Positions 12,464 through 57,285 of a stretch of DNA of 64,000 nucleotides are shown here, piece by piece. This stretch comes from a virus (Duplodnaviria > Heunggongvirae > Uroviricota > Caudoviricetes). How positions within the stretch are numbered: position 1 is the stretch's first letter; the number at the start of each line of letters is the position of its first letter. The notes beneath the pieces were generated by a model that was not told the DNA's origin, searched no databases, and worked only from the letters and a program-made list of their open reading frames with translations. Location of the stretch: IMG/VR virus record IMGVR_UViG_3300005613_000043, one strand, 5' to 3'. The position numbers and the translations under genes were made by a program.

Positions 12464-12470
12464 TTTTTTT
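12464..12470 (+). terminator. T7 tract downstream of the capsid gene (archaeal-type oligo-T terminator candidate)
   Basis: gattttttt 50 nt after the MCP stop. Confidence 0.25.
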
Positions 12471-12495
12471 GGCTATCGTATTATATTTACAATGT

Positions 12496-12529
12496 GACCC
12501 GTAGGGTCAATAAGTGGCTCGAAAGAGCC
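12496..12529 (+). other. two adjacent short hairpins (gacccgtagggtc; ggctcgaaagagcc with a GNRA-like loop) in the MCP/fibre intergenic leader
   Basis: perfect 5-bp stems read directly from the sequence. Confidence 0.4.
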
Positions 12530-44025: not shown

Positions 44026-44226
44026 TTACTTCCCCCCAATTATTCCTAAACTTATGAAGAGGATAATTACAATCGGTATAAAAAATACTAAATCACCAAT
44101 ATTACTAAAACCAAATACAGCTATTATAAACTGCGCCCACAACCAAAATAATCCGATTATAAATGAAAAAACAAGAACAATTATCAAGGTTGCAATAATT
44201 GCAAACTCATAATCAAATTTAACCAT
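44026..44226 (-). CDS. small polytopic membrane protein (NfeD-like partner of SPFH)
   Basis: 66 aa, almost entirely hydrophobic, immediately upstream of the SPFH gene. Confidence 0.4.
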   Translation of the reverse strand: MVKFDYEFAIIATLIIVLVFSFIIGLFWLWAQFIIAVFGFSNIGDLVFFIPIVIILFISLGIIGGK

Positions 44227-50136: not shown

Positions 50137-50811
50137 TCATTTCACCAACCTCTTATATCTGTAAAAACTCCTGCGGGAAAGTCCGCTTTCTTCTACAAAA
50201 ATTCTAATTTGTTCTTTAATTGATTTTCCCGAACTAATTAATTCCTGAACTAATAATTTATTCTTATCTACTTGAAGTAAAGGCAATACTAAATTTTTAA
50301 AATCCTTCCCATGCTCACGGGCATATAGGTAACAACTCTCAGCCTTTGCCTGAAGCCTTAAATTAAGATTCTTCGTGCTTGGGCTTGTTTGCTTCTGTAT
50401 ATACTTGAACACTTCAAACCTCTCATCCCTTGTTAGGTTCGGATGATTCACCTTGCAAATCTCAGCCATGATTTTAATGATAGTCTTATAGTCGAATTTA
50501 ATCTCATGAACTAAACACCTGCTTAAGATAGCTTTGAATATCGGGTCTTTTGGTATTTGATTTAATGTAAATATTATCTTGCTCGAAAAAGAAAACTTAG
50601 GCGGGACATTAATCTTGGGACTGCTCGTAAACCAGCTGACCGTTCTAACACCTGTAGTAGACCAAAGTGCTGGTAATAATAAACTATTATGAGAAAGAAC
50701 CCCATTTTCGAGTATAAAATTATGATTATCTTCTACTTCAATATCATACATCGGTATTTTCATTTCGGTTCTTTCTATTTTCAAAATAGATAATTTCTTT
50801 AATTTCATCAT
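50137..50811 (-). CDS. C-terminal fragment gene of the fractured clamp-loader-family AAA+ ATPase: C-split intein (about 42 aa) plus C-extein with sensor-1 and SRC motif
   Basis: starts MYDIEVEDNHNFILENGVLSHN|S (intein blocks F/G); extein KIIFTLNQIPKDPIFKAILSRCLVHEIKF matches the RFC-box pattern fILscN....IiepiqSRC. Confidence 0.7.
   Translation of the reverse strand: MMKLKKLSILKIERTEMKIPMYDIEVEDNHNFILENGVLSHNSLLLPALWSTTGVRTVSWFTSSPKINVPPKFSFSSKIIFTLNQIPKDPIFKAILSRCLVHEIKFDYKTIIKIMAEICKVNHPNLTRDERFEVFKYIQKQTSPSTKNLNLRLQAKAESCYLYAREHGKDFKNLVLPLLQVDKNKLLVQELISSGKSIKEQIRIFVEESGLSRRSFYRYKRLVK
50686..50811 (-). mobile_element. C-terminal half of a split intein
   Basis: block F/G VLSHN followed by the nucleophile Ser. 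Confidence 0.65.
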
Positions 50812-51628
50812 TCTCCTTCACCTCTATCAGACATATATTAATGCCCTGGCTCAATAGGGCAAGCAAATTTTTAGTTTGAATGAAACTAAAATTATCACTC
50901 TCTTTTTTTACTTCTCCTAAATAAAAAATCCCATTTTTAATCAGAATAAAATCGAAAAAACTAATTTTTTCAATTTCAGCAAATCGAATCGGGCAGTTCT
51001 TACAGATATTTAGTGGATAAGTAGGAGGTTTTAAAAGACAAAGATTGGCACAATGGAACGCTTTATGATTTGGTAGTTGGTTAAAATATTCAATTATTTT
51101 AGCATCGGATTTGGCTTGATGTGTTTTTCTATATTTATTCATACCTGGAGGTAATCCTGTTCCTTTTAGGATTTTATAAAGTTTATGAATGCCACATTTA
51201 TATTCAATTCTTAATCGAGTTAGAGTCATTCCTGCCTTAAATTTTTGAATAATTTCAGATGCTGGTAAGGATGGTCTTCTGATTTTATGATATTTGATTC
51301 TACGATGAATAGTCTGTTCACAAACTCCCAATTTTATTGCTATTTGTTTTTGTGAAATGCCTGAAAGATATAAATCTTTTATTTTTTTAATATTAATTTT
51401 AATCCAATTTGGATGATTTTTACCCTCCCAATTAATATATCCACATGAATGAAGAAATTTCATTTCACACGAACGATTGCAAAAATGATGTTTATAAGGT
51501 CGATATTTTCCTTTGGTAATCTTTCCACTTCGTCTTACTGGTAGATTCTTTCCACACCAATCACATTTTAGCCCGTGAATTCTTTTGGCATGTCCCCTAT
51601 GTGATAGTTTTAAATTATTTGAGTTCAT
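50744..51628 (-). CDS. free-standing PD-(D/E)xK-type homing endonuclease inserted between the split-intein halves (third reading frame)
   Basis: N-terminal C4 zinc finger and HTH (ISQKQIAIKLGVCEQTIHRRIK), NUMOD-like GKNHPNW, C-terminal FFDFILIKNGIFYLGEVKK (D...E-V-K); overlaps the upstream gene by 14 nt and the downstream gene by 68 nt. Confidence 0.6.
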   Translation of the reverse strand: MNSNNLKLSHRGHAKRIHGLKCDWCGKNLPVRRSGKITKGKYRPYKHHFCNRSCEMKFLHSCGYINWEGKNHPNWIKINIKKIKDLYLSGISQKQIAIKLGVCEQTIHRRIKYHKIRRPSLPASEIIQKFKAGMTLTRLRIEYKCGIHKLYKILKGTGLPPGMNKYRKTHQAKSDAKIIEYFNQLPNHKAFHCANLCLLKPPTYPLNICKNCPIRFAEIEKISFFDFILIKNGIFYLGEVKKESDNFSFIQTKNLLALLSQGINICLIEVKENDEIKEIIYFENRKNRNENTDV

Positions 51629-53609
51629 TCATATCAATATATATTATATGGTCATCATCATTTAAATCTTTTGCTCTTTTTAATTCAATCAAATCATTTT
51701 TCTTGACAAACCATCGATGTTCGGGAGAACATTCAATTATTCCTTTTTTCGTATGAATTCTAATTACGGGTTTCAAACCTACATGTTTACTTTTAAATGG
51801 TTTTAATTCGATTTTCTTTAATCTAAAATTATATGAAGGAAGATATTCATCTCCCAGTAAATCAGATATTTCTTTTATTCCTTTTGAGGTAATAATTTTT
51901 GTATAAAATGGGAGACAGACGGCTTCTTTGGAATGGACAATTTCTGTAGTGTCATCGAAAAAAAGGACATAGCCGTCTTTATGTTGGTATAGGAACTCAA
52001 ATAGCCTCAGTGGTGTTCGATGTCCTGAGTGGTAGATATAAGGCATTTTTGACTTCTCCAAGATGTTTAATATCTGAAAAGTATTATGAATAAAAATATC
52101 ATTTGCAACGAAATTATGGAAAGCTTTTAATACTGTAAAATCATAAACTTTAAACTTTCCTGTTTTCTTCTTGATTGAAACAATTTTGTCCCAAAAAATT
52201 TCCGAATGTTTTAAATCAGTATCTTGAATTGATTTTCTGGTAAAATGTCCCCCACGTGAAGGGTCCCTAATTATGGGTATAATATCAACATTAGTGTTTG
52301 ATTTTTTGGTCTTATAAGACTCAACCATTTTTCCTAATTTGAGAAACTTTCTTCGTAATGGAATTCTGATATTTTCATAAAATTTGATAATATTATCTTT
52401 TCCAAGTACTGATGTAGTCCAATATATTTGGTTATATTTTTTGTTTAACTTCCCGAACACAGTAGATAAAATTCCAAATCTTAACAAAAGATGTTGAATT
52501 TGTCTTGCCAACAATCTTGACTTAGACGTATATTCGACTTTCCCTTTTCCGATATAACCATCTCCCGCATAAAGATAACCAAGGAATTCTGAAACTTGAA
52601 ATAGATTTAATGTCATTATCTCGTTTGGAATAAATTTTTCTCCTGATAATTTCTTTGCTAAATTTAATTTCCTGAGATATTTTCCTACTGCATTTGAACC
52701 TGTTTTTTCTTTCTTTTTGGCAATATGATAAGAATATTTTTTCATTTTTCTAAGTCGTAAATGTTTATCAAATCGCTTGACTAAACACTCAAATTCCTTA
52801 AGAAGCTCTGGTTCACTTGTAGAAAAAAGAAAGTGTCCCGATTTCGACATACACCCTTCAGAAATCATAAGTGCAAGAAGTTTTACCTTATGTTCGCTAA
52901 GAACTCGTTTGGGGTTAATATGATAAATTCTGGGTGTTGCGATAAATCCACCTTCTTTTAAAGTATCGGCTTGTTTCCAGCCATCAATGGTAAAAAATGG
53001 ATGTTCTGGCGTAACGGATATATCCCTTCCACTTCGTAAGGTGAATTTTAAAATTTCATTTGATTCTAATTCCTTCATATCGGTTATTCGAGTTTTTTTA
53101 ATCTTTAATTTTGTATTCAAACCAAAAAGTTGAGATTTTCTTTTCTTTTTGAAGATATTTAAATCCTTTTCAAATATTAATCTTCCATCTCCTCCAACTA
53201 AAAATGTATCTTTATCGAAGAATATGCACTTCCCAATGCCGACTTGACCAAAAACAATCATTGAATTAGTGAATCCCTCAACCACCATCTGGGTGTATTC
53301 ATGTAAAATTTTGTAGAACCTTTCAATCTTAGGCGTCATGGATTCTTCTATTAACCTGATTGATTCTTTCTGGGTGAGTTCCAATGATTCCTGCTCTTTC
53401 TTGAAACACTCTTGTATCTCAGATTGAATCTTCCCCATGTCTAATTTCTCTTTAAATGCTTCTGGGTATTTCCCCTTTATTGTTGAAAGGTTACTCGCAA
53501 TTGGTAGGTTTGAGTCCCAATTATCTGAAAAGGGAAACTTATCGAATGATTCTGGATTCTTCAGCATTTTCTTTAATATGTTTTCTGAAAATGAACTATA
53601 GCTAACCAT
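51615..53609 (-). CDS. N-terminal fragment gene of the fractured clamp-loader-family AAA+ ATPase: N-extein, complete LAGLIDADG intein in the P-loop, Walker B segment, then N-split intein
   Basis: VFGQVGIGK|C...FIHN|TFQILN: Walker A interrupted by a 382-aa intein; YVLFFDD Walker B; C-terminal 100 aa CLPFYTKIITSKG...ECSPEHRWF are intein blocks A/B ending at the stop. Confidence 0.75.
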   Translation of the reverse strand: MVSYSSFSENILKKMLKNPESFDKFPFSDNWDSNLPIASNLSTIKGKYPEAFKEKLDMGKIQSEIQECFKKEQESLELTQKESIRLIEESMTPKIERFYKILHEYTQMVVEGFTNSMIVFGQVGIGKCIFFDKDTFLVGGDGRLIFEKDLNIFKKKRKSQLFGLNTKLKIKKTRITDMKELESNEILKFTLRSGRDISVTPEHPFFTIDGWKQADTLKEGGFIATPRIYHINPKRVLSEHKVKLLALMISEGCMSKSGHFLFSTSEPELLKEFECLVKRFDKHLRLRKMKKYSYHIAKKKEKTGSNAVGKYLRKLNLAKKLSGEKFIPNEIMTLNLFQVSEFLGYLYAGDGYIGKGKVEYTSKSRLLARQIQHLLLRFGILSTVFGKLNKKYNQIYWTTSVLGKDNIIKFYENIRIPLRRKFLKLGKMVESYKTKKSNTNVDIIPIIRDPSRGGHFTRKSIQDTDLKHSEIFWDKIVSIKKKTGKFKVYDFTVLKAFHNFVANDIFIHNTFQILNILEKSKMPYIYHSGHRTPLRLFEFLYQHKDGYVLFFDDTTEIVHSKEAVCLPFYTKIITSKGIKEISDLLGDEYLPSYNFRLKKIELKPFKSKHVGLKPVIRIHTKKGIIECSPEHRWFVKKNDLIELKRAKDLNDDDHIIYIDMNELK
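51618..51917 (-). mobile_element. N-terminal half of a split intein (about 100 aa) at the 3' end of the upstream fragment gene
   Basis: begins at Cys after ...VHSKEAV; blocks A and B present; the ORF stops with no C-terminal splice block. Confidence 0.65.
52083..53228 (-). mobile_element. complete intein with LAGLIDADG endonuclease domain inserted after GK of the Walker A motif
   Basis: starts Cys, block B SVTPEHPFF, LAGLIDADG motifs LLALMISEGCM and LGYLYAGDGYI, block F/G VYDFTV...HNFVANDIFIHN followed by Thr. Confidence 0.8.
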
Positions 53610-53663
53610 AATTTAACCTCATTATTAAAATCGTAATTTGTTTTCGGTTTTTATTTCTATACT

Positions 53664-53845
53664 GACTCGTATGCTTATCATGAGTTTTACAATAGGCAAT
53701 GACTCGCAATTATCAAATGTTCTATTCTTGTTTTGGCTCGCAGACACAGTTTGGTTTTTCACTTGAACTTTGGCTCGTAATCGTCTAATGGATTTTATTC
53801 ACCTGGCGACTCGTAATTTTCTATTGGTTTTCATCCTAACCTTGA
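53664..53845. repeat. array of five roughly 36-bp degenerate direct repeats with core GRCTCG(Y)AA
   Basis: units start at 53664, 53701, 53735, 53772 and 53808 (gactcgtatg..., gactcgcaatt..., ggctcgcagac..., ggctcgtaatc..., gactcgtaattt...). Confidence 0.7.
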
Positions 53846-53846
53846 C

Positions 53847-54743
53847 TTACTTTTTGTCAACCCAATCCAAGTATTCAACCCCTTCTGGAGTCTCAATGAA
53901 TGGAGGCTCAATGTCGTGCCCCATCAATCCTGGATACGGGTCAGTAATGGGTAGATTGTTTAATTTTCTGAACACCTTCCAGTAGTTAGTTAGGAATATT
54001 CTCATTGTCATATTCTTAGCGGTCAGATGGACTTTAAGTTTCTTTGTTCCCTTTTCTGGTTCAGGGCATCTCTCATCGTATTCCCTTTTCTTCCTCAGGT
54101 AGGTAGCATAGTATTGCCCTTTAGCTTTCATTAGCTGGGTCAATATCTTAAACATCAATGTTTTCAGTCTTGGGTTGAAATGAGTCGCTTCTCCTCTTTT
54201 GAGTCTTGAATCGGGTATTATACCGCAGTATTTGTGAAGCTTGCTCGGATTTGTAGCTACTGTCATTACAGGAAAATATTTTACCCTTATCCATCTGTCT
54301 TTTAAGTTTTCTTCAACCACTTCTCCATATTCTGGTATTTCAAGCGAAATCGTTTCGTTCTTTTTCTTCTGTTTGTAAACATCATCTTTTACTTTTTTAG
54401 TTATCCCTTGTATCTTAAATTCTCTCGGCTTTGCCAGCCAAGCCAATAGATACCCTGACATTATTGGTCCTATTCCCTTTATTTTCTTAAGATATTTAAC
54501 GTATATTTCTTCCTTTTTTACTTCCTTTCCGATTTCTTTGCTTAACATAACTTCCAGTCCCTGCTCTTTTGCCTCTAATTCCCTGAAGAATGCTTCGTTC
54601 TTAAGCTCCTCTGGCAAACTTAGAAGCCTGTTCCCGCTTCTAATTCTGTCCTTCTGATAGTCCACTAAACTCTCCACTAAAAATCTTAGTTTATCCATAG
54701 TATCACCTCTGATTATTTTAAAAAAAACATGACGTATTTTCAA
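53847..54743 (-). CDS. IS110-family C-terminal (Transposase_20 / HhH) domain protein lacking the N-terminal DEDD/RuvC-like catalytic domain
   Basis: coiled-coil LVESLVDYQKDRIRSGNRLLSL; HhH KIKGIGPIMSGYLLAWLAKPREFK; KYCGIIPDSRLKRGEATHFNPRLKTLMFKI...YYATYLRKKRE...KVHLTAKNMTMRIFLTNYW parallels the Pfam Transposase_20 consensus; only about 85 aa precede the HhH. Confidence 0.5.
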   Translation of the reverse strand: MKIRHVFFKIIRGDTMDKLRFLVESLVDYQKDRIRSGNRLLSLPEELKNEAFFRELEAKEQGLEVMLSKEIGKEVKKEEIYVKYLKKIKGIGPIMSGYLLAWLAKPREFKIQGITKKVKDDVYKQKKKNETISLEIPEYGEVVEENLKDRWIRVKYFPVMTVATNPSKLHKYCGIIPDSRLKRGEATHFNPRLKTLMFKILTQLMKAKGQYYATYLRKKREYDERCPEPEKGTKKLKVHLTAKNMTMRIFLTNYWKVFRKLNNLPITDPYPGLMGHDIEPPFIETPEGVEYLDWVDKK

Positions 54744-54764
54744 TTTGGTTTATAAAATTGTTGT

Positions 54765-54960
54765 GACTCGTAAATTTCTAAATGGTTTTTATTCAACTAT
54801 TGACTCGCAAATTATAGTTGAACTATATTTTACTTTTTGGCTCGTAAATCTCTTCTGGATTATATTCATACTACGACTCATATCTATTACATGAGTTTTA
54901 AAGTTTCATTGATTCGCAACCTTCTTTTGTATTTTACACAATATTTGGCTATCGCATAAG
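54765..54960. repeat. array of six roughly 36-bp degenerate direct repeats, same family and orientation as 53664..53845
   Basis: units start at 54765, 54802, 54839, 54875, 54911 and 54947; unit 54875 (gactcatatctattacatgagtttta) closely resembles unit 53664 (gactcgtatgcttatcatgagtttta). Confidence 0.7.
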
Positions 54961-54980
54961 AAAAAAATAAAAAGAAGGCT

Positions 54981-55463
54981 CTAATATTCCAAAATAATCT
55001 TAACAAACAAATCAGTAAGAGCCTTTACTCCATCAGCTATTCCTTCTTTACTATAGGTCTGACCCATTAATTTGCCTTCGGAATCGGTATAAGTGTTCTC
55101 TATCTCCCATTGCTTTAGGAAACAATCAGTAGCTTTTTTGAACGCCTCTAAACGAACATTCAATCCCTCTGCTTGCTTGTAATACTGGCTTGCTGGCGGG
55201 AATGAATCATCGACTTTACTTTGAACTTGTTCTGTTTCTTTTATCACTTCAACCACTCCCTTGACATTGTGAAAATTCCCTTTCTCTACTCCCTCGAACT
55301 TGACCATGTCATCTTTTACAGCAGTTGTAACTCCGAACCCGTTCCACCATGTATTTCCTATTTTAATCCCGTAGGTTTTTTTAGGCACTCCTTCGACCAT
55401 TACCTCTCTCGGAGAAGATACAGCTTCTACTTTTCCTATTATTTCCATATTATCCCTCCTCAC
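54981..55463 (-). CDS. hypothetical protein (possible OB-fold)
   Basis: ORF track. Confidence 0.3.
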   Translation of the reverse strand: MRRDNMEIIGKVEAVSSPREVMVEGVPKKTYGIKIGNTWWNGFGVTTAVKDDMVKFEGVEKGNFHNVKGVVEVIKETEQVQSKVDDSFPPASQYYKQAEGLNVRLEAFKKATDCFLKQWEIENTYTDSEGKLMGQTYSKEGIADGVKALTDLFVKIILEY

Positions 55464-55963: not shown

Positions 55964-56176
55964 TCAAACAGCATCAATCTTGCTAAATTCAGTTAGACAT
56001 TTGGGACACAATATACGCTCCTTATTGTTAAAATAAAATAAAAGATAGTCCTGGTTTTTTGAACCGCATTCTGGACATATCCTTTTGATTTTCACGAATT
56101 TCCAATCATCCCAATTACACTTTTTCGACTTTAATTTCGATTTCTGTGACATGAATTTCTCTATTTTCTTTTTCAA
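55964..56176 (-). CDS. zinc-ribbon small protein
   Basis: CPECGSKNQ...CPKCLTEF. Confidence 0.35.
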   Translation of the reverse strand: MKKKIEKFMSQKSKLKSKKCNWDDWKFVKIKRICPECGSKNQDYLLFYFNNKERILCPKCLTEFSKIDAV

Positions 56177-56438
56177 AGGAATTTGTCTTAATCTTCACAT
56201 CTGAAATCTTAGCCATTCCTTCTCTTTCTAAGATAGCAGCCACATCGCATGCCCTTGAAGTTGCCCTTCCCCTTGCGAGTATTGACACTTTTCCTTTATT
56301 TTTCGGGTCTTTTAACTGCCTAAGGGTTGCGAGCTGGTATACCGACAAATCCTTTCCTGTCATAGTTTTTGTTTCAGGGTCGAATCTCCGAGAGCTGATA
56401 TACACACAGCCATCTTTTAGTTTTCCTTTATTTTCCAT
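56115..56438 (-). CDS. albA: Alba-family DNA/RNA-binding protein
   Basis: GKVSILARGRATSRACDVAAILEREGMAKISDVKIKTNSFEKENREIHVTEIEIKVEK aligns to the Alba core eivIkArGraIskAVdvaEi....ikigte...g....vs.ieivl.k. Confidence 0.65.
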   Translation of the reverse strand: MENKGKLKDGCVYISSRRFDPETKTMTGKDLSVYQLATLRQLKDPKNKGKVSILARGRATSRACDVAAILEREGMAKISDVKIKTNSFEKENREIHVTEIEIKVEKV

Positions 56439-56451
56439 TGTTTTTACCTCC

Positions 56452-57285
56452 TTATATTACCTGTCCACTCATTGAATGAAATACATGTTCTGAGTCTGCT
56501 CTTATTTTATCTTGCCTCAATTTATTTGTTTCGGTTGTAGCTTTTGGTTTGAACTGAGAAGTGTAAACTGTTCCTTCCTCAGCTTTCTTAATCTTTTCAT
56601 CAAGCTTGTTTTCAATTTTTTTTAATTTTAATTGGTCTTTTTTTGTTAATCCTCTAAGAGTAGAATGTATAGCCTGATGACAATTTCTACATAAGACTAT
56701 CAAATTAGAAATAGAATTGTTTAAGTGATTATTATCTCTATGATGAATTTCTAAGGAGCTAATATACTTTTTATATCCACATAACATACATTCAACGCTT
56801 GGGGTAATCCTCAAAATTTGTTTCCTTTTTATTAATCCTTTTTTTTCGCTGATTTCATTTCTATGTTTTCTTGCCCATAATCTGCTTCTTTTTCTAATTC
56901 TTTCACTATGACGTTCTTTGTATTGTTTATAATATATTTTCCTTTTTTCAGGATTCTTTCTATACCATTCTTTAATATATTCTTTTCTGTATTTTTTTGA
57001 ATTAAATCTGTTACGTCTTTTACGAGGAATATTGTTTTTAGCTAATAGTTTTCTGATTGGTTCTTTTGTAACTCCATACTGCTCTCCAATTTCTCTTGTA
57101 TTAAATCCATCCACTGTATATCTTCTAATTATATCATTCGTAAAATCCTTTAATAATGGTTTTTTCAGACTCTTAGAATCAGGATACCTATGGCTAATAT
57201 AGAAACCACTAATTCCAAGAGTTTTCTGCACATTAGCCATAGATACCAAATTAGTATTGATTTCTGGATATATAAAACTTTTCAT
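56452..57285 (-). CDS. HNH homing endonuclease with N-terminal HTH repeats
   Basis: LEIHHRDNNHLNNSISNLIVLCRNCHQAIH. Confidence 0.75.
   Translation of the reverse strand: MKSFIYPEINTNLVSMANVQKTLGISGFYISHRYPDSKSLKKPLLKDFTNDIIRRYTVDGFNTREIGEQYGVTKEPIRKLLAKNNIPRKRRNRFNSKKYRKEYIKEWYRKNPEKRKIYYKQYKERHSERIRKRSRLWARKHRNEISEKKGLIKRKQILRITPSVECMLCGYKKYISSLEIHHRDNNHLNNSISNLIVLCRNCHQAIHSTLRGLTKKDQLKLKKIENKLDEKIKKAEEGTVYTSQFKPKATTETNKLRQDKIRADSEHVFHSMSGQVI

Follow-up and report, generated by a model that had tools for sequence, protein, structure and literature searches.

Overview of the locus

The 64-kb stretch of DNA analysed here (the window) comes from a tailed virus of ~33% G+C that is probably archaeal. 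The region of interest holds a 283-aa gene (53847–54698, minus strand) lying between two non-coding repeat arrays, each with a period of ~36 bp. That a gene is bracketed by two repeat arrays was already recognized in the original prediction, which had their positions right, and direct reading shows units of 34–37 bp. Gene and arrays together very probably form a dual-repeat TIGR-TasA system. TIGR-Tas systems, which bind DNA under the guidance of RNA, were first reported in 2025 (Faure et al., Science 2025, PMC12045711), and the locus is a clear further example of a known system type; the element type is not new. Because it shows the defining features of TIGR-Tas, the earlier idea of a new kind of mobile cassette falls away. 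By analogy with studied relatives, its likely function is RNA-guided DNA binding, and since TasA is without a nuclease domain the outcome would be binding rather than cleavage.

The TasA protein

The gene and the features within it are as follows.

53847–54698, minus strand: tasA, encoding a 283-aa TIGR-associated protein with a coiled coil, helix-hairpin-helix and Nop domain, and no nuclease domain
54270–54431, minus strand: beta-rich insertion of ~55 aa (aa 90–143), between the helix-hairpin-helix and the remaining Nop domain
53916–53936, minus strand: codons of the Tyr255-His261 pair, putatively catalytic in pre-tigRNA processing

The product had been read as 298 aa, but the most likely start is the ATG at 54698, which is preceded by a ribosome-binding site (GGTGA, 54703–54707) and is common to all homologues in the alignment; an identical protein of 283 aa exists in the database. 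The protein matches the NCBIfam family NF052498 (TIGR_Tas_endo) with E = 2.6e-28 and 99.5 bits, 0.5 bit short of the curated cut-off of 100 bits, the insertion in the Nop domain breaking the match into two parts. It also matches TasR of PDB 9mty (E = 9.5e-14 by sequence, 1.3e-22 by profile) and TasH (E = 2.4e-7). An AF2 model (pLDDT 90) opens with two long helices at the N terminus, after which come those of the Nop domain, and in a Foldseek search with this model TasR came first (E = 1.5e-9, TM 0.60), then TasH, then IS621, with the top ten matches consisting only of TasR or TasH (TM 0.55–0.60). The kinship with the C-terminal RNA-binding part of IS110 recombinases that had been proposed is thus real at the level of the fold. 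The more specific assignment to Transposase_20 holds in so far as this likeness of fold goes; as a domain match it does not, with Pfam PF02371 reaching only E = 0.049 and 14.5 bits (cut-off 21.3) and covering the helix-hairpin-helix alone.

It was also correctly noted that the whole DEDD/RuvC domain is missing. The protein begins at the coiled coil, has no match to PF01548, and aligns with TaTasR only from residue 120 of the latter, so that neither a RuvC nor an HNH domain is present; a Pfam scan of the protein found no nuclease domain. This nuclease-free architecture belongs to a large family, with 3162 cluster representatives at E ≤ 1e-3. In a profile alignment, Y255 corresponds to Y289 of SpTasH and H261 to H296, which in SpTasH are the catalytic residues of a metal-independent pre-tigRNA maturation (PMC13421893). 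Across the family the PY is invariant and the H nearly so, and the basic-aromatic pair of helix alpha-4 has its aligned counterparts in K179 and F183.

The sole extra element of the protein, according to the model, is the beta-rich insertion, with six strands at aa 92–141 where TaTasR has ~10 residues. It occurs in part of the family, at variable length, and is missing from minimal TasA proteins. In the literature, insertions in the Nop domain are assigned to stem-loop systems; the present locus is of the dual-repeat kind. In this clade of archaeal-virus TasA proteins the insertion may be a new functional module, for example a domain that binds nucleic acid or recruits a partner.

The two repeat arrays

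Six units were found on either side of the gene. Their limits, taken from mid-edge to mid-edge in the upstream array, are listed with the arrays to which they belong.

54732–54960, minus strand: upstream TIGR array; degenerate first edge (54947–54960), units u1–u6, then a degenerate truncated edge TACGT and a T run
54950–54915, minus strand: unit u1
54914–54879, minus strand: unit u2
54878–54843, minus strand: unit u3, with spacers TAGTATGAA and GAAGAGATT; guide kept in an 88%-identical relative
54842–54806, minus strand: unit u4
54805–54769, minus strand: unit u5
54768–54732, minus strand: unit u6
53631–53847, minus strand: downstream TIGR array, units d1–d6
53847–53812, minus strand: unit d1
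53811–53776, minus strand: unit d2
53775–53739, minus strand: unit d3
53738–53705, minus strand: unit d4 (34 nt, degenerate loop)
53704–53668, minus strand: unit d5, with spacers (T)TGCCTATTG and TGATAAGCA; second kept guide, its array position differing in the relative
53667–53632, minus strand: unit d6

The count of five downstream and six upstream units given originally changes to six each, with degenerate units added at the outer ends (53632–53667 and 54732–54768), and what had been taken as a last unit at 54947 is only the degenerate first edge repeat. Read on the tas strand, a unit consists of an edge TRCGAGYCA (9 nt), a 9-nt spacer A, a loop TAAAAWCCA (9 nt) and a 9-nt spacer B. The first edge of the downstream array, at the tas stop codon, is cut short on its 5' side to AGTCA, and the last edge, short of its 3' part, reads TTACGA and precedes TTTT; beyond the array lie a ribosome-binding site and the ATG (53609) of the next gene. 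Both the plan of edge, spacer A, loop and spacer B and the truncated edges at the array ends are as published for TIGR arrays (PMC12045711). Conservation is concentrated in the repeats, at 1.53 bits per column for the edge and 1.06 for the loop, with 0.14 for spacer A and 0.23 for spacer B. Judged by the pattern of a 5' box D (UG in TasR), a 3' box C (CCA in TasR) and an A-rich loop interior, both repeats open with U-R and close with Y-C-A, UA being commoner than UG, and the interior of the loop is AAAA(W).

All 12 units fall between 34 and 37 nt, those of unusual size or with a degenerate loop being d4, u4 and u1, and the loop variants include TAGAACA, ATATAGTTCA and TAAAATACA. Units at 53664 and 54875 had been described as cognate between the arrays; what they have in common is mainly the unusual loop-repeat variant TAAAACTCA, and not their spacers. 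The motif GRCTCGYAA has six copies in the 64-kb window, all within the two flanks, against 0.58 expected, and none of 100 shuffles reached six. The GACTCR motifs at 40.1–40.5 kb, formerly read as a recurrence of the repeat core, are not array units, and a position-weight scan gave no unit-like match there. Likewise, an apparent orphan unit at 12468–12503 was set aside: it is not 36-periodic and sits among small hairpins that are probably terminators.

The use of a repeat finder, which had been recommended for defining the units, was successful only in part. Tandem Repeats Finder detected neither array, since conservation extends to no more than about half of each unit, and it was a repeat search together with direct reading that defined them. 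Rfam gave no match in 53400–55200. In a scan for bacterial-type promoters and terminators no hairpin terminators were found after the arrays, only T runs, which alone may suffice as a terminator if the host is archaeal. The promoter-like matches of the same scan are uninformative for a probable archaeal virus.

Predicted pairing of the tigRNA ends

Neighbouring edges covary. In all 12 units of the window (p = 0.002 by permutation) the Y of an edge forms a Watson-Crick match, U-A or C-G, with the R of the edge that follows, and with the 88%-identical relative added the count is 30 of 30, while control pairing within the same edge copy gave 11/26. Next to it, a G-to-C pair is kept in 10 of the window's 12 units. 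In a processed 36-nt tigRNA the two ends would be expected to join through just such a Y-R pair, and its presence in 12/12 units, with covariation, implies ongoing selection on the RNA. The corresponding box pair of the loop is Watson-Crick in only 3/9 window units and, given also the off-size and degenerate units, certain units may be inactive; the loop pair of the 88%-identical relative does covary (12/17, p = 0.003).

Covariation and truncated edges fit both strands equally, and the strand must therefore be judged from the order of the boxes (U-R to Y-C-A), from the A-richness of the loops, from the relatives and from the way in which the neighbouring genes point. From these we infer that the minus strand is transcribed.

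Relatives and array turnover

Examination of related genomes, another of the checks originally recommended, found the same repeats beside tas. In the 88%-identical relative the locus is syntenic, with the same genes on its flanks, and the arrays have the same edge and loop; most spacers are different, whole units have been inserted or deleted, and two guides are kept. More generally, where TasA is identical or 88% identical, natural variants of the locus are set apart by whole 36-nt units and have only these two guides in common. Arrays of the same motifs lie beside tas in other relatives (TGCGAGCCA with TGAAACCCA, the former two reading as the edge/loop box pattern, and TACGAGTCA with TGAAAACCA), with unrelated spacers, and those of L006, L033 and L043 are near-perfect. 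The view that the flanking repeats belong with the gene is borne out.

One kept guide is that of u3, which differs from its counterparts in L003 and L002 by 0–1 mismatch over 18 spacer positions, most other units differing by at least 6. The other is d5, whose spacer B is identical, and whose spacer A has two differences, in the first downstream unit of L001 and L002. Written as 5'-spacer A plus the reverse complement of spacer B-3', the predicted composite targets are TAGTATGAAAATCTCTTC for u3 and TGCCTATTGTGCTTATCA for d5.

The relatives of this tas clade are archaeal (Bathyarchaeia, Desulfurococcaceae and Thermococcus). None were found in IMG/VR, and among GTDB species genomes there was one only, a Desulfurococcaceae MAG.

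Searches for targets

Self-targets in the window were sought with both spacer arrangements at up to three mismatches, giving one at two mismatches and 18 at three, where Markov controls gave 1.6 and 19.1. When the spacers were arranged as the published 8-nt 3' overhangs imply, with gaps of 0–2 nt, the window held seven matches against ~5 expected. The best of the window matches, that of guide d4 at 44169–44188 with one mismatch, has p ~0.08 and was dropped as a target. The conserved guides u3 and d5 were scanned for exactly in IMG/VR and gave 6 and 10 matches, amounting to 4–5 independent groups each; none of these is window-like, none is matched by a second guide, several lie in DNA of ~50% G+C, and their number is at chance level. 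Finally, 129 guides from 13 relatives gave one self-match in their own flanks of up to 10 kb per side (0.6 expected), and none matched the window.

As guides that have survived between diverged viruses, u3 and d5 may point to a natural target in a host or a rival virus. If so, this would be one of the earliest TIGR loci to which a biological target could be assigned. Both proposals, the insertion as a new module and, separately, these two guides as marks of a natural host or rival-virus target, we consider unlikely.

Discussion

The closest match in organization is the dual-repeat TIGR-TasA type represented by FpTasA of Flavonifractor plautii (PMC12045711), which likewise has a coiled coil and Nop domain only, with no nuclease, arrays both upstream and downstream made of 36-nt units with 9-nt spacers A and B, repeats that place box D first and box C last, truncated edges at the array ends, and a virus-borne location. 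The present locus differs in that its box D is mostly UA and not UG, its box C is UCA or CCA, its loops are unusually variable, its Nop domain carries the ~55-aa beta insertion, hairpin terminators are lacking, and the relatives of its clade are archaeal. The nearest solved structure, by sequence (E = 9.5e-14) and fold (TM 0.60), is TaTasR from a Thermoproteota archaeon (PDB 9mty). TaTasR has the same coiled coil, helix-hairpin-helix and Nop core, 9-nt spacers, and an edge G-C pair besides the box C/D pair, but it also has an N-terminal RuvC domain (residues 1 to about 119), cuts both strands, and has Trp in the place of Tyr255. SpTasH of Salicola phage CGphi29 (PDB 9w03, 9w04 and others) has in common the Nop fold and the C-terminal loop with Tyr289/His296, but bears an N-terminal HNH nuclease, uses 8-nt spacers, and is only ~17–18% identical to the present protein. 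As to function, the best analogy is with MbTasA and the dead TasR repressors (preprint 10.64898/2026.09.09.750476) and PlTasA (preprint 10.64898/2026.08.11.744272), which are nuclease-free and bind DNA under RNA guidance with repression. The tigRNAs of PlTasA and of the two dead TasR proteins studied, PateTasR and CsTasR, are of the stem-loop kind, and stem-loop Tas proteins are without the Tyr/His loop, whereas the present locus has dual repeats and keeps the loop.

Among other RNA-guided systems, CRISPR-Cas, which would have a single repeat of 25–36 nt, spacers of similar size and cas genes, is ruled out by the two different 9-nt repeats, the 9-nt spacers and the lack of any cas family (Pfam, seven ORFs scanned between 50.1 and 57.3 kb). 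The archaeal box C/D sRNPs (Nop5, fibrillarin, L7Ae) are also rejected: the RUGAUGA/CUGA K-turn boxes are absent from the units, there is no fibrillarin-binding domain N-terminal to the coiled coil, and the target expected here is DNA, not RNA.

Two further readings were already part of the original prediction. One takes the arrays for iterons of a replication origin or a partition site around the gene of an initiator or centromere-binding protein, as in P1 and F. In its favour, a gene flanked by two direct-repeat arrays of the same orientation is also seen in plasmid P1 (incC-repA-incA), and some TasA loci have been reported beside ParB-like genes (PMC12045711). Iterons, however, are near-identical protein-binding sites of 17–22 bp beside a Rep or ParB gene, while here two 9-nt blocks are conserved in each 36-nt unit and the 9-nt blocks between them are free to vary and turn over among close relatives. 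Covariation of Y with R between neighbouring edges would be meaningless for protein-bound DNA and is expected for RNA ends, the protein is an RNA-binding one with a Nop domain, nearest to TasR and TasH and not a winged-helix Rep or ParB, and no ParB or ParA adjoins the locus. An origin or centromere is, on this evidence, extremely improbable. We find it just as hard to credit that the locus is a decayed or non-canonical IS110 element which has lost its DEDD domain and multiplied its bridge-RNA-coding ends. Such an origin could explain the likeness of fold to the IS621 and ISCro4 recombinases (E about 1e-3), the weak Transposase_20 match over the helix-hairpin-helix and the label 'transposase' on PHROG 4285, and the notion of guide-RNA-coding ends expanded into repeats did point in the right direction, even though decay of an IS110 element fails as an account. 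The RNA-binding C-terminal domain is homologous and a two-part guide logic is common to both, but neither a DEDD/RuvC-like domain nor IS boundaries are present, PF02371 falls below its cut-off (14.5 versus 21.3), PF01548 is absent, NCBIfam transpos_IS110 scores 11.9 against 140, and the RNA units are tandem 36-nt guides in place of one two-loop bridge RNA. The nuclease-free family is large and intact (3162 representatives) with its residues conserved, which argues against decay, and synteny of the locus, with the same flanking genes, extends to the 88%-identical relative.

A different question is whether a true TIGR-TasA locus is here seen with arrays that are decaying and largely non-functional, the protein being kept for some other role or itself being lost. 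The units are more degenerate than those of the relatives (34–37 nt, with the loop variants given above), the loop box pair is Watson-Crick in 3/9 units where the arrays of L006, L033 and L043 are near-perfect, and the target searches came back blank. Set against this, the end pair is intact and covarying in 12/12 units, loop variation is equal in the 88%-identical relative, whose loop pair covaries, two guides have been conserved across that divergence, and the protein keeps its functional residues. We therefore think decay very unlikely.

How it might operate can be drawn from published work on relatives, which would cover transcription and processing of the arrays, dimer formation, DNA binding and repression. 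Transcription of both arrays would run along the minus strand, on which tasA and all its neighbours are also encoded. A TasA dimer would assemble on the precursor RNA, each Nop domain reading one repeat, with its initial U-R (box D) and terminal Y-C-A (box C), and the precursor would be cut within each edge repeat at about TACGA|GYCA, probably by the Tyr255/His261 pair. The predicted product is a 36-nt tigRNA made up of 5'-GYCA, spacer A (9 nt), UAAAAWCCA, spacer B (9 nt) and URCGA-3', the ends of which would pair through G1-C34 and Y2-R33. There would be 12 such tigRNAs, each guiding the dimer to an 18-bp DNA site of the form 5'-spacer A, 0–2 nt, reverse complement of spacer B-3', with spacer A pairing with one DNA strand and spacer B with the opposite strand. 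Nuclease-free TasA proteins have been described as carrying out RNA-guided DNA binding and repression of transcription (preprint 10.64898/2026.09.09.750476), and binding without cleavage would here most plausibly repress or block a target in the host or in a rival element.

The known mechanism of TIGR-Tas is unchanged by this locus. Since the protein falls 0.5 bit under the NCBIfam cut-off and the arrays are missed by tandem-repeat finders, standard annotation may overlook loci of this kind. To the TIGR-Tas systems known so far the locus adds a cleanly resolved viral example, in which the pairing of tigRNA ends is visible directly from sequence covariation in the arrays, and whose natural array variants bear on the turnover of arrays and on the question of which guides are important.

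Gene and repeat arrays

This is a new example of a kind of system already known, the dual-repeat TIGR-TasA system, and comprises:

54950-54732, minus strand: upstream array, six units (u1 to u6)
53847-54698, minus strand: tasA, ATG at 54698, 283 aa
53847-53632, minus strand: downstream array, six units (d1 to d6)

The original prediction was right in its anatomy, a gene between two repeat arrays, and its minus-strand gene is present, with the start moved. The region has a minus-strand ORF with a non-coding stretch on either side, the listed start being a TTG (298 aa). Because GGTGA lies 5' of the ATG at 54698, all homologues start at the corresponding Met-Asp-Lys-Leu-Arg in the alignment, and a database record of an identical 283-aa protein exists, the gene is taken as 53847-54698.

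The repeats flanking the gene are real: the window has six copies of the 9-base core GRCTCGYAA, always in the two tasA flanks, where chance would give 0.58, and no shuffle out of 100 had as many. Tandem Repeats Finder, proposed as a check, reported nothing in these flanks because the unit is conserved only in part. In the TIGR arrays described by Faure et al. (Science 2025, PMC12045711), box D (UG in TasR) opens both the edge and the loop repeat and box C (CCA) closes them; the loop is rich in A, and edges are truncated at the array start and end. Both flanks match this plan when the minus strand is read, with edge TRCGAGYCA, loop TAAAAWCCA and 9-nt spacers. The downstream array starts with AGTCA at the tas stop codon and ends with TTACGA then TTTT, after which come the next gene's ribosome-binding site and start codon. 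In 18 units that are exactly 36 nt long, from the window and an 88%-identical relative, information per column was 1.53 bits in the edge, 0.14 in spacer A, 1.06 in the loop and 0.23 in spacer B. At about 54719, a T/A run that separates the tas ribosome-binding site from the last upstream unit differs in length between the window and the ENA contig L009.

The strongest single result on the arrays is covariation between successive edges. The Y of an edge copy can form a Watson-Crick pair (U-A or C-G) with the R of the next copy in 12 of 12 window units (permutation p = 0.002) and, with the relative added, in 30 of 30, while positions paired inside the same edge copy, as a control, agreed in only 11 of 26. 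A tigRNA cut mid-edge is expected to have this pair between its 5' and 3' ends; the TasR structure has such an end pair, which its paper calls covariation-supported. Protein-binding iterons, as in the origin or centromere of the original prediction, would lack this edge-to-edge covariation, and neither that proposal nor those of a decayed IS110-like element or a new mobile cassette was right. Outside the arrays, the best unit-matrix match (12468-12503, minus strand) scored 14.8, against 22-29 for well-formed units, and was not 36-periodic. Its surroundings are intergenic and contain two small hairpins as well as edge-like CGAGCCA, CGGGTCA and CGATAGCCA motifs, likewise not 36-periodic; this hairpin-bearing stretch probably represents terminators.

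The TasA protein

In Pfam, the predicted Transposase_20 match was found over the helix-hairpin-helix, but only below threshold (E = 0.049, 14.5 bits, cut-off 21.3), and the PHROGs match is a 'transposase' family (1.2e-19). NCBIfam NF052498, 'TIGR-Tas system RNA-guided endonuclease' (TIGR_Tas_endo), gave E = 2.6e-28 and 99.5 bits, 0.5 bit short of its curated cut-off of 100. The solved structure closest in sequence was the TIGR-TasR complex 9mty (E = 9.5e-14; by profile, 1.3e-22), and TasH came next. An AlphaFold2 model built from 22 homologues was confident (pLDDT 90), and Foldseek placed TasR and TasH chains on top (E = 1e-9 to 1e-7, TM about 0.6), then the IS621 and ISCro4 bridge recombinases (E about 1e-3). 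The IS110 kinship that was proposed is right as a deep evolutionary relationship.

The protein lacks the RuvC domain, since the alignment begins at TaTasR residue 120, and has no HNH domain, which is the architecture of TasA. It retains two functional signatures: Tyr255 and His261 correspond in the alignment to SpTasH Tyr289 and His296, which cut pre-tigRNA (PMC13421893), and Lys179 and Phe183 to the basic-aromatic pair located where DNA unwinding begins at the junction. The model also has a beta-rich extra segment of ~55 aa (aa 90-143) between the helix-hairpin-helix and the remaining Nop domain, which some family members have and minimal TasA proteins lack. The family as a whole is large, with 3162 cluster representatives at E <= 1e-3. 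This insertion splits the NF052498 match and is probably the cause of the 0.5-bit shortfall.

Relatives and array turnover

The 22 close homologues are from metagenomes or archaeal MAGs (Bathyarchaeia, Thermococcus, a Desulfurococcaceae MAG). Their tas-adjacent arrays have the window's motifs, TGCGAGCCA with TGAAACCCA and TGTGAACCA with TTAAACACA, one locus having TACGAGTCA with TGAAAACCA, and their spacers are unrelated. In two more distant relatives (L010, 5700-6300; L011, 4160-4440), the upstream array is opposite to tas in orientation and the downstream array co-oriented. The 88%-identical relative is represented by three contigs with identical TasA and is syntenic with the window; it retains the edge and loop repeats, shares only guides u3 and d5 with the window, and differs by insertions and deletions of whole units. 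Two of these contigs (L001 and L002, TasA P0002) show natural polymorphism in array length: their downstream arrays, of 6 and 11 units, differ in the terminal units.

Viral context

Genes for a large terminase, Mu-type portal, D5-type primase-helicase and beta-helix fibre protein lie in the window, whose G+C is about 33%; the terminase has only about 25% identity to that of any isolate, archaeal viruses included. Near tasA lie:

56452-57285, minus strand: ORF with an HNH endonuclease domain and sigma-70 region-4-like HTH, 1.7 kb upstream of tasA
56115-56438, minus strand: Alba-like DNA/RNA-binding protein (NCBIfam E = 1.6e-11)
51615-53609, minus strand: P-loop ATPase gene, interrupted by an intein with a LAGLIDADG domain
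50744-51628, minus strand: HTH and zinc-finger ORF, between the ATPase gene and ORF 50137-50811

The Alba-like protein hints at an archaeal host, as do the archaeal affinities of the tas clade. The HNH ORF looks like a homing endonuclease and is not conserved beside tas in relatives. The C-terminal end of the ATPase has the apparent start of a second intein, with the last block in ORF 50137-50811, and the 50137-53609 region may hold inteins that are split or nested. Contig L009 is 99.97% identical to window 62618-48404 and diverges completely at about 48404; its divergent part (L009 14218-16550) carries a tyrosine-integrase ORF that the window lacks at that place. A variable region is one possible reading, an alternative junction another.

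Mechanism and targets

If the locus works as characterised systems do, its arrays would yield 36-nt tigRNAs guiding a TasA dimer to 18-bp sites, one spacer pairing with each strand. The published 8-nt 3' overhangs fix the target geometry: along one strand come spacer A, a gap of 0-2 nt, and spacer B as its reverse complement. Searches of the window, the relatives' flanks and, for the two conserved guides only, IMG/VR gave no matches above chance; according to the literature, natural targets are difficult to identify when spacers are short. The best self-target candidate, for guide d4 at 44169-44188 on the plus strand (1 mismatch, 2-nt gap), was not significant against shuffled guides (p ~0.08). 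That site falls within a small membrane-protein ORF (44226-44027, minus strand). For nuclease-free TasA, DNA binding and transcription repression have been demonstrated (preprint 10.64898/2026.09.09.750476).

For this known kind of system, the within-array covariation and the unit-level polymorphism of near-identical loci are worth recording, as are the Nop-domain beta insertion and the near-miss of the curated NCBIfam model. Annotation by threshold may leave the protein without a name.
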